A stretch of DNA of 64,000 nucleotides from Escherichia coli (GTDB lineage Bacteria > Pseudomonadota > Gammaproteobacteria > Enterobacterales > Enterobacteriaceae), in NCBI RefSeq assembly GCF_003334255.1, contig NZ_QOWU01000021.1; one strand, 5' to 3'. Under the pieces are notes generated by a model that saw nothing but the letters and a program-made list of their open reading frames with translations, made no database searches and was not told the origin of the DNA. The number at the start of each line of letters is the position of its first letter. Within the stretch, counting starts at the first letter, position 1. Below, one piece after another: positions 3,499 through 5,796 of the stretch. A program made the position numbers and the translations under genes.

Positions 3499-4578
3499 AT
3501 GTCTAAGATTTTTGATTTCGTAAAACCTGGCGTAATCACTGGTGATGACGTACAGAAAGTTTTCCAGGTAGCAAAAGAAAACAACTTCGCACTGCCAGCA
3601 GTAAACTGCGTCGGTACTGACTCCATCAACGCCGTACTGGAAACCGCTGCTAAAGTTAAAGCGCCGGTTATCGTTCAGTTCTCCAACGGTGGTGCTTCCT
3701 TTATCGCTGGTAAAGGCGTGAAATCTGACGTTCCGCAGGGTGCTGCTATCCTGGGCGCGATCTCTGGTGCGCATCACGTTCACCAGATGGCTGAACATTA
3801 TGGTGTTCCGGTTATCCTGCACACTGACCACTGCGCGAAGAAACTGCTGCCGTGGATCGACGGTCTGTTGGACGCGGGTGAAAAACACTTCGCAGCTACC
3901 GGTAAGCCGCTGTTCTCTTCTCACATGATCGACCTGTCTGAAGAATCTCTGCAAGAGAACATCGAAATCTGCTCTAAATACCTGGAGCGCATGTCCAAAA
4001 TCGGCATGACTCTGGAAATCGAACTGGGTTGCACCGGTGGTGAAGAAGACGGCGTGGACAACAGCCACATGGACGCTTCTGCACTGTACACCCAGCCGGA
4101 AGACGTTGATTACGCATACACCGAACTGAGCAAAATCAGCCCGCGTTTCACCATCGCAGCGTCCTTCGGTAACGTACACGGTGTTTACAAGCCGGGTAAC
4201 GTGGTTCTGACTCCGACCATCCTGCGTGATTCTCAGGAATATGTTTCCAAGAAACACAACCTGCCGCACAACAGCCTGAACTTCGTATTCCACGGTGGTT
4301 CCGGTTCTACTGCTCAGGAAATCAAAGACTCCGTAAGCTACGGCGTAGTAAAAATGAACATCGATACCGATACCCAATGGGCAACCTGGGAAGGCGTTCT
4401 GAACTACTACAAAGCGAACGAAGCTTATCTGCAGGGTCAGCTGGGTAACCCGAAAGGCGAAGATCAGCCGAACAAGAAATACTACGATCCGCGCGTATGG
4501 CTGCGTGCCGGTCAGACTTCGATGATCGCTCGTCTGGAGAAAGCATTCCAGGAACTGAACGCGATCGACGTTCTGTAA
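3499..4578 (+). CDS. fbaA: fructose-bisphosphate aldolase class II
   Basis: Translation MSKIFDFVKPGVITGDDVQKVF...; ATG at 3499 trimmed from ORF 3415..4578. Confidence 0.97.
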   Translation: MSKIFDFVKPGVITGDDVQKVFQVAKENNFALPAVNCVGTDSINAVLETAAKVKAPVIVQFSNGGASFIAGKGVKSDVPQGAAILGAISGAHHVHQMAEHYGVPVILHTDHCAKKLLPWIDGLLDAGEKHFAATGKPLFSSHMIDLSEESLQENIEICSKYLERMSKIGMTLEIELGCTGGEEDGVDNSHMDASALYTQPEDVDYAYTELSKISPRFTIAASFGNVHGVYKPGNVVLTPTILRDSQEYVSKKHNLPHNSLNFVFHGGSGSTAQEIKDSVSYGVVKMNIDTDTQWATWEGVLNYYKANEAYLQGQLGNPKGEDQPNKKYYDPRVWLRAGQTSMIARLEKAFQELNAIDVL

Positions 4579-4602
4579 GATATTCCTTTCTGCTTATCTC
4601 AA

Positions 4603-4627
4603 GGCCCGCTCTGCGGGTCTTTTTTTC
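4603..4627 (+). terminator. intrinsic terminator downstream of fbaA
   Basis: GC hairpin cccgc-tct-gcggg followed by run of 7 T. Confidence 0.75.
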
Positions 4628-4642
4628 GCCAAAAGCAAAATT

Positions 4643-4741
4643 GCCTGATGCGCTACGCTTATCAGGCCTACACGTATCCTGCAATATATTGAATTTGCAG
4701 GTTTTTGTAGGCCGGATAAGGCGTTCACGCCGCATCCGGCA
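4643..4741. repeat. REP pair (BIME) in fbaA-mscS intergenic region, flanked by ~35-bp direct repeats at 4604-4638 and 4771-4805
   Basis: gcctgatgcgctacgcttatcaggcctac and inverted gtaggccggataaggcgttcacgccgcatccggca are typical REP palindromes. Confidence 0.85.
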
Positions 4742-4935
4742 TGACAAAGCGCACATTGATATCTGTCTGAGCCCCGCTCTGCGGGGATTTTTTCGCCAAA
4801 AGCAAGGTGATTCAGATGAGAAATCTGTGATCTATTTGGCAAAATTATGCTTTATTGTTTACCCTTGTCAGACTGCCCGTCATAAGGCGGCGGAGTGTAT
4901 TTCTCCATTTTGAGTCAGTTGAAAAGGAATATTGA

Positions 4936-5796
<861 letters not shown>

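Follow-up and report, generated by a model that had tools for sequence, protein, structure and literature searches.

Probable integration of a BIME-1 element into the fbaA terminator with duplication of the hairpin, and matching footprints at other BIME-1 loci

The spacer between fbaA and mscS of Escherichia coli carries a BIME-1 element that very probably integrated into the fbaA terminator and duplicated its target, putatively by staggered cleavage at the feet of the terminator hairpin. The structure occupies positions 4602-4805 of the 64,000-nucleotide stretch of E. coli DNA analyzed here (the window). Alignments of flanks and alleles show the same hairpin-duplication footprint around most intact BIME-1 copies. 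The fbaA locus itself is an ordinary polymorphic BIME-1, and the interesting part is the footprint rule.

No repeats in E. coli are more abundant than REP and BIME sequences. A 2026 preprint described their insertion mechanism as "not fully established" and their insertion as "semi-random" (10.64898/2026.03.23.713779). The footprints reported here define an element (by its terminal inverted repeats), a target (terminator stem-loops) and a duplication set by structure; such a duplication is not foreseen by the accepted IS200/IS605-like model. With element, target and duplication defined, the insertion mechanism is therefore directly testable. The footprints further account for the entry of such elements into 3' UTRs with termination left intact.

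The duplicated hairpin and the element in the fbaA-mscS spacer

The fbaA coding sequence (3499-4578, plus strand; 1080 nt in the RefSeq annotation of identical E. coli sequence) was taken from the list of open reading frames and ends with a TAA stop codon at 4576-4578. The downstream gene, mscS, lies at 4936-5796 on the same strand according to both the open reading frame list and RefSeq annotation. The 357-bp spacer between them (4579-4935) is 100% identical to that of E. coli K-12 and BL21. Downstream of the stop codon a G+C-rich stem-loop followed by a T-run occurs twice on the plus strand. Copy 1 of the direct repeat (4602-4638) is the original predicted intrinsic terminator of fbaA plus CGCCAAAAGCAA, with its stem-loop at 4601-4621 and its T-run extending to 4626. 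Copy 2 (4770-4805) is the duplicated predicted terminator, again with CGCCAAAAGCAA, having its stem-loop at 4772-4786 and its T-run at 4788-4793.

The original prediction, made from the letters of the window, was that the hairpin at 4604-4638 recurs almost exactly at 4771-4805, and both strings are indeed at these positions. A repeat search aligned 4602-4625 with 4770-4793 (24 nt, 88% identity) and 4621-4638 with 4788-4805 (18/18) at a spacing of 167-168. When joined, the two matches give a repeat of 37 versus 36 nt that differs by three substitutions and one T indel, all located in the hairpin part, whereas the 3' 18 nt of both copies are identical (TTTTTTCGCCAAAAGCAA). The Smith-Waterman score of left flank against right flank was 25.5, compared with a mean of 8.0 (sd 1.1) and a maximum of 12.5 for control pairs of mismatched flanks drawn from 28 loci.

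Both copies passed a scan for terminator-like structures, copy 1 with a 9-pair stem plus T-run (4601-4621) and copy 2 with six G-C pairs plus T-run (4772-4786), and their predicted fold energies were -14.3 and -11.8 kcal/mol, respectively. Two tandem terminator-like structures, as had been proposed, are thus predicted by scan and folding alike. Both look like complete terminators because the duplication takes in the T-run and CGCCAAAAGCAA in addition to the stem-loop. Two of the differences between the copies, G to C and T to G, convert a G·T pair of copy 1 to a C·G pair in copy 2. A hairpin-capping or "P-nucleotide" origin, in which a break in the loop is followed by fold-back synthesis, would make each copy a perfect self-complement of one arm. 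This origin was ruled out, since the G·T pair is kept in copy 1 and the same TCT loop is present in both copies.

The 132 nt between the hairpin copies consist of a Y REP, an L linker, a Z1 REP and a degenerate right-end motif, all given here on the plus strand. The Y-type REP, a palindromic unit at 4643-4671 with the 3' end CCTAC, matches the Y pattern with no mismatches and is predicted to form a hairpin of -13.2 kcal/mol (z = -4.5). The linker TGCAATATATTGAATTTGCA (4680-4699) was assigned by motif match and by Rfam family ES036; the ES036/CssrF match covers 4664-4706 on the minus strand with 47.3 bits versus a gathering score of 37.6. The L linker has been described as an IHF-binding motif (PMC3333891). 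The Z1-type REP (4706-4741) is inverse to the Y REP, begins with GTAGG at 4706, matches the Z1 pattern at 4711-4740 with no mismatches, gives a predicted hairpin of -20.9 kcal/mol (z = -3.9) and is also a partial match to Rfam naRNA4. The two REPs form an inverted repeat with arms that are 93% complementary. The right-end or "B" motif, TGACAAAGCGCACATTGATATCTGTCTG (4742-4769, 28 nt), corresponds to one arm of the terminal inverted repeat of the family; its alignment with the B consensus has a score of 15 of 30, and its assignment was also based on alignment with orthologous and other BIME-1 copies.

The segment has the traits of BIME-1: one Y and one Z1 REP in inverse orientation, an L linker and an extragenic location at the 3' end of a transcription unit. 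The allele in the window contains one such unit. The left-end motif is absent, and the 23 nt in its expected position are the T-run plus CGCCAAAAGCAA plus AATT. The earlier description of the intervening DNA as a REP pair can therefore be refined to a BIME-1 without its usual left-end motif. The predicted fold of the spacer RNA has five separate hairpins (z = -5.1), and an Rfam scan of the fbaA region gave no match to the RtT family.

A perfect 10-nt inverted repeat, ATATTCCTTT / AAAGGAATAT, was also seen at 4580-4589, just past the fbaA stop codon, and at 4923-4932, over the mscS ribosome-binding region. Its arms may pair across the entire spacer in a read-through transcript, and it may have arisen by chance. 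Elsewhere in the window, and as would be expected in this part of E. coli DNA, Rfam matches at gathering level were obtained on the minus strand for SIB RNA (17778-17928) and 6S RNA (ssrS; 18577-18760).

Empty sites and recurrence of the footprint

The filled fbaA allele was found in 3720 of 5426 complete E. coli genomes. Every other chromosomal match sampled from E. coli, where about 1700 genomes are without the full allele, spans exactly 167 bp less. Four sequenced empty alleles, which read ...CAAGGCCCGCTCTGCGGGTCTTTTTTTCGCCAAAAGCAAGGTGAT... and are 167 bp shorter, have no BIME and a single hairpin that matches copy 1 exactly; the empty alleles include that of the B2 strain UPEC 536, with its 190-bp spacer. 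The filled allele is thus the empty allele plus one 167-bp block composed of the element and one repeat copy. The original prediction had staked its case on such a single-hairpin, BIME-free site, and E. coli itself provides it.

The polarity of the change was assessed by a scan based on MscS that used one genome per species and returned 80 loci, with Salmonella, E. albertii and E. fergusonii not among them. The spacer is 158-218 bp in 50 of the 53 non-Escherichia Enterobacteriaceae loci in which fbaA and mscS are adjacent, and each of these spacers has one conserved GC hairpin plus T-run. The three larger spacers have unrelated insertions inside. The single terminator of these 50 species indicates that the empty state is ancestral and that the element arrived within Escherichia.

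Within Escherichia the fbaA site is found with zero, one and two units. In E. whittamii a single BIME precedes a second hairpin that has decayed, and Escherichia sp. E1V33 (contig L008, 1974-2500) has two BIMEs and three hairpins in tandem. None of 27 sampled full-coverage E. coli alleles was a two-unit allele, a count that is ambiguous in that matches may be joined. The atypical left junction CGCCAAAAGCAA|AATTGCCTGATG is common to E. coli, E. whittamii and Escherichia sp. E1V33, and by this sequence criterion indicates a single origin of the fbaA insertion. The interleaving of filled and empty states across Escherichia flank distances requires that precise losses, gains or transfers followed later. 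Integration took place either in an ancestor common to several Escherichia lineages or with later spread of the allele by homologous recombination. Strains thus differ in having one, two or three tandem hairpins between the highly expressed glycolytic gene fbaA and mscS, and the hairpin number may affect read-through and 3'-end stability.

The reverse history, in which the long allele is ancestral and the short allele a deletion, draws on some of the same data. Direct repeats around a palindromic element are classic substrates for precise deletion, unequal exchange is clear from the two-unit allele, and the interleaving of filled and empty states among Escherichia lineages also fits. Indeed, because the direct repeats recombine, as the E1V33 allele demonstrates, some of the empty sites in E. 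coli may once have been occupied and then have lost the element by precise deletion. However, all of the non-Escherichia genera examined have a single hairpin and no element, and we consider this history very improbable. The same low probability applies to its variant, in which the terminator was first duplicated in tandem and the BIME inserted later without duplication, a variant to which the comparison of other BIME-1 loci is pertinent.

The only other BIME-1 in the window lies in the yqeB-arcC spacer and is a complete 152-bp element (62165-62316, plus strand) in which motif scans found both end motifs (GAGACTGATGACAAAC...GACAATCTT). It is bracketed by two copies of a 28-nt stem-loop that differs from that of fbaA, the left copy at 62137-62164 and the right copy at 62317-62344 (both plus strand), which repeat comparison showed to be 28/28 identical at a spacing of 180. 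Of the 5426 E. coli genomes, 1649 carry this element; in the remaining alleles a single stem-loop is present and the length is less by exactly 180 bp.

An L-to-Z1 pattern was run against metagenome sequence, and the 108 usable instances that it returned represent 28 distinct loci. For each locus the 40-nt windows abutting the projected element ends were compared, with 756 mismatched pairs as controls. A direct repeat abutting the ends with a score of at least 9 was found at 13 of the 28 loci versus 1.2% of the controls, and a score of at least 11 at 8 loci versus none of the controls. Both end motifs were intact at 14 loci, about 11 of which have a clear duplication, one (cl15) a partial duplication and two (cl23 and cl25) none. 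About half of the sampled loci have no detectable duplication, and most of these have degraded end motifs. At the repeat-bearing loci the gap between repeat and element end was 0 to -1 nt. The repeats at typical loci are GC stem-loops specific to each locus, 16-28 nt in length, and their length tracks the size of the stem-loop. The stems are often conserved between copies while the loops differ, and one locus (cl17) shows a compensatory change. A structure-based scan of 1.59 Mb of sequence gave two further BIME-1 loci with hairpin duplication, L116 (23/23) and L211.

A REP-like cluster of the window at 32270-32445 has a 75-bit match to Rfam naRNA4 (32271-32348, minus strand) and a 34-nt direct repeat of a REP at a spacing of 119. 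Hairpin duplication was not found around this cluster (32271-32440), which is BIME-2-like or atypical.

Element-free alleles were compared at five loci, and every empty site had one hairpin. The ymdF-rutG site is filled in 1734 of 5426 genomes, and its empty allele is 174 bp shorter with one stem-loop. The metE-ysgA site is empty in all E. coli and filled on a related metagenome contig; the difference is ~171-173 bp, with one stem-loop when empty. At these two loci, at fbaA, at yqeB-arcC and in Buttiauxella (see below) the empty site contains exactly one repeat copy, as in a target-site duplication of the transposon type. None of the five had an element-free allele with two tandem hairpins, as prior tandem duplication of the terminator would require, and the layout of repeat plus element recurs at unrelated loci, each with its own hairpin. 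This recurrence requires a process that creates the duplication at insertion. The proposal with which we started, insertion accompanied by duplication of the target hairpin, is therefore supported: empty alleles exist, the single hairpin is ancestral, and the second BIME-1 of the window and many further loci repeat the architecture. The comparisons show that integration duplicates the whole stem-loop, that the element ends are precise and that the direct repeats later mediate loss and tandem gain.

Insertion point and putative mechanism

Intact BIME-1 copies are 152-153 bp in length. The consensus starts with GAGACTGATGACAAAC and ends with TTTGTCAACAATCTGA, and the ends are imperfect terminal inverted repeats, GAGACTGATGACAAA ... 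TTTGTCAACAATCTGA, formed by the outer end motifs. The 153-nt consensus is predicted to fold as one long hairpin of -57.2 kcal/mol. At typical loci the left stem-loop copy runs directly into GAGACTG..., and a T-run follows only the right copy. Hence the element lies between stem-loop and T-run, and the distal copy is the sole complete terminator. These junctions show that BIME-1 at typical loci becomes part of the 3' UTR of the upstream gene. Among the repeat-bearing loci, no fewer than nine have the T-run on the side of the B motif and one has it on the opposite side, an orientation bias that could reflect either mechanism or selection.

We infer the following cleavage scheme from the footprints. 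A hairpin or cruciform at the target would be recognized or extruded, and each strand would be cut once at a foot of the stem, leaving a staggered break with the whole stem-loop as overhang; handling of the target in this form would lead one to expect a stagger of stem-loop length. The element ends would then be joined and the gaps filled, such that the length of the duplication would be set by the structure and not by the enzyme. Once insertion has formed the direct repeats, these give rise to precise loss and tandem gain. A duplication of fixed length, which is typical of a transposase, was not observed, the repeats ranging from 16 to 28 nt at typical loci and reaching 37 nt at fbaA.

Candidate enzymes are the REP-associated Y1 transposase (RAYT/TnpA-REP), a transposase that recognizes the terminal inverted repeats, and a host structure-specific nuclease. 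In the vicinity of a REP, TnpA-REP cleaves single-stranded DNA at C^T, and its specificity is low (PMC3333891). The usual left junction (stem-C|T...) agrees with this preference, whereas the right junction of the yqeB-arcC copy, the youngest insertion, does not, and RAYT cleavage at C^T on both strands was therefore rejected as a complete explanation.

The fbaA repeat is atypical in that it is 37 nt long, includes the T-run and 12 further bases, and has no left-end motif beside it. At the left junction the target sequence GCCAAAAGCAA resembles the element sequence GACAAACGCAA. The long repeat might have arisen from a joint made at this microhomology, or from later conversion or unequal exchange.

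The same microhomology, with GACAAACGCAA belonging to the end motif of the element, would also be at home in replicative template switching, in which a fork stalls at the terminator hairpin and the nascent strand switches to a BIME-1 elsewhere, returns upstream and recopies the hairpin. Hairpins and REPs are known to stall polymerases, stalling at a BIME has been reported (PMC3333891), and a duplication of 16 to 37 nt that follows the hairpin is unlike the duplications fixed by enzymes. However, random switching should give ragged ends, whereas the ends of the element vary by no more than 1-2 nt across more than 13 loci and in three genera, the lengths are a uniform 152-153 bp, the ends form terminal inverted repeats, and junction homology is not visible at typical loci. 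Owing to the uniformity of the ends we regard template switching as the weaker explanation and as unlikely, and favor staggered cleavage at the hairpin feet.

Relatives of BIME-1 and known systems

Elements with BIME-1-like termini were also found beyond E. coli. In Citrobacter sp. 18056 (contig L047, 3386-3568) a 142-bp element downstream of mscS has BIME-1-like termini and no REPs inside. On each side stands a copy of the mscS terminator stem-loop, the two being perfect matches (21/21), and only the right one has the T-run behind it. This REP-less element suggests that the termini, not the REPs, may be the mobility determinant. In Buttiauxella agrestis (contig L035, 1744-2382) the DNA upstream of mscS contains a tandem array of 4.1 x 154 bp. 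Each unit is a 23-nt hairpin plus a 132-bp element with Buttiauxella-type REPs and BIME-1-like termini, and the array ends with a hairpin and T-run directly upstream of mscS. The units alternate between two variants, a sequence pattern that suggests duplication of a two-unit block. Five sister Buttiauxella species (L045, L048, L055, L059 and L064) have a single terminator and no element there.

A 185-bp element of the window that contains boxC (28619-28803) has termini similar to those of BIME-1 (TAGTCAGATGACAAAG ... TTTGTTAGCAATCTCA). It starts directly past a terminator hairpin and T-run (AAGGCGCTTCGGCGCCTTTTT, within window positions 28600-28803), and a second hairpin copy is absent to its right. 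A search of 1.59 Mb gave no autonomous element with BIME-1-like termini; two candidate terminus pairs were discarded as chance matches or adjacent genes.

Tentatively, BIME-1 and its relatives might constitute a MITE-like superfamily of ~130-185-bp elements across Enterobacteriaceae that is defined by its terminal inverted repeats (GAGACTGATGACAAA / TTTGTCAACAATCTGA) rather than by REPs, and that inserts specifically between terminator stem-loop and T-run via cleavage at both hairpin feet, with REP pairs, boxC or other sequence as cargo. We hold this broader reading to be possible although short of probable. If true, it would supply the long-sought insertion footprint of REP/BIME elements, explain how REPs occupy 3' UTRs without broken termination, and account for tandem arrays by re-insertion into regenerated hairpins or by unequal exchange.

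In the accessible literature, which does not include key papers of the 1990s such that an earlier description is possible, we found nothing on the terminator stem-loop as target, on structure-defined hairpin duplication, on shared terminal inverted repeats or on REP-less relatives. The BIME-1, RIP and RIB elements of E. coli (Gilson 1991; Bachellier 1994, 1997; Oppenheim 1993; Boccard & Prentki 1993) are summarized in PMC3333891 and PMC1187871, and presence or absence of BIME-1 among isolates is already recorded in the latter source, which cites Bachellier 1997. The fbaA copy resembles these elements in its order of Y REP, IHF-type L linker and Z1 REP, its extragenic 3' position and its presence/absence variation; unlike them, it has no left-end motif and lies between the two copies of a 37-nt duplication of the host terminator. 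BIME-1 has been described as occurring in single copies (PMC3333891), whereas two units stand in tandem in the orthologous allele of Escherichia sp. E1V33.

Naville and Gautheret (PMC2965389) had already pointed to a BIME-based "attenuator" upstream of mscS, and a remark in their paper prompted examination of the 178-bp tyrT repeats/rtT as a possible BIME-1 array. The tyrT-distal region of E. coli K-12 (rttR/tpr; contig L208, 905-1463) consists of 3.1 x 178 bp, and the 3' end of tRNA-Tyr is repeated at the end of every unit. The layout, an element plus a duplicated upstream 3' structure, is analogous to that of the Escherichia sp. E1V33 allele and the Buttiauxella array. However, these repeats are not BIME-1: they have no Y, L or Z1 motifs, their ends are different and their sequence is unrelated, and the fbaA region has no RtT match. 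The candidate was therefore rejected.

Group IIC introns are reported to insert after intrinsic terminators (Robart, Seo & Zimmerly 2007). They share with BIME-1 the use of a terminator stem-loop as DNA target and insertions that are kept harmless, but as retroelements they encode a protein within the intron and are not known to duplicate their target.

In the accepted model, REPs move by transposition of the IS200/IS605 type with a Y1 transposase, which makes no target duplication (PMC3333891; PMC2817692 for the lack of direct repeats). The BIME-1 consensus has the arrangement that characterizes a REPIN, two inverted REPs plus spacer that fold as one long hairpin, and with its GTAG-tagged REP it is akin to the REPIN/RAYT and IS200/IS605 systems (Nunvar 2010; Bertels & Rainey 2011; Ton-Hoang 2012). 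Terminators, with their stem-C|T-run boundary, would also offer sites for RAYT cleavage at C^T. However, flanking direct repeats are absent from IS200/IS605-type transposition, whereas repeats flank 13 of the 28 BIME-1 loci and are long, structure-defined duplications. A further difference from REPIN/RAYT is the Citrobacter element, which has BIME-1-like termini and the footprint but no REPs, and in which the termini may define mobility.

Terminal inverted repeats plus target-site duplications are the signature of bacterial MITEs such as Correia and ERIC/IRU (PMC3184786). BIME-1 shares with MITEs its short length, non-autonomous nature, terminal inverted repeats, flanking direct repeats, fold as a long hairpin and intergenic location. 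Classical MITEs, however, are flanked by a short duplication of fixed length, such as TA, that is set by a DDE transposase, whereas the BIME-1 duplication is 16-37 nt and comprises a whole stem-loop.
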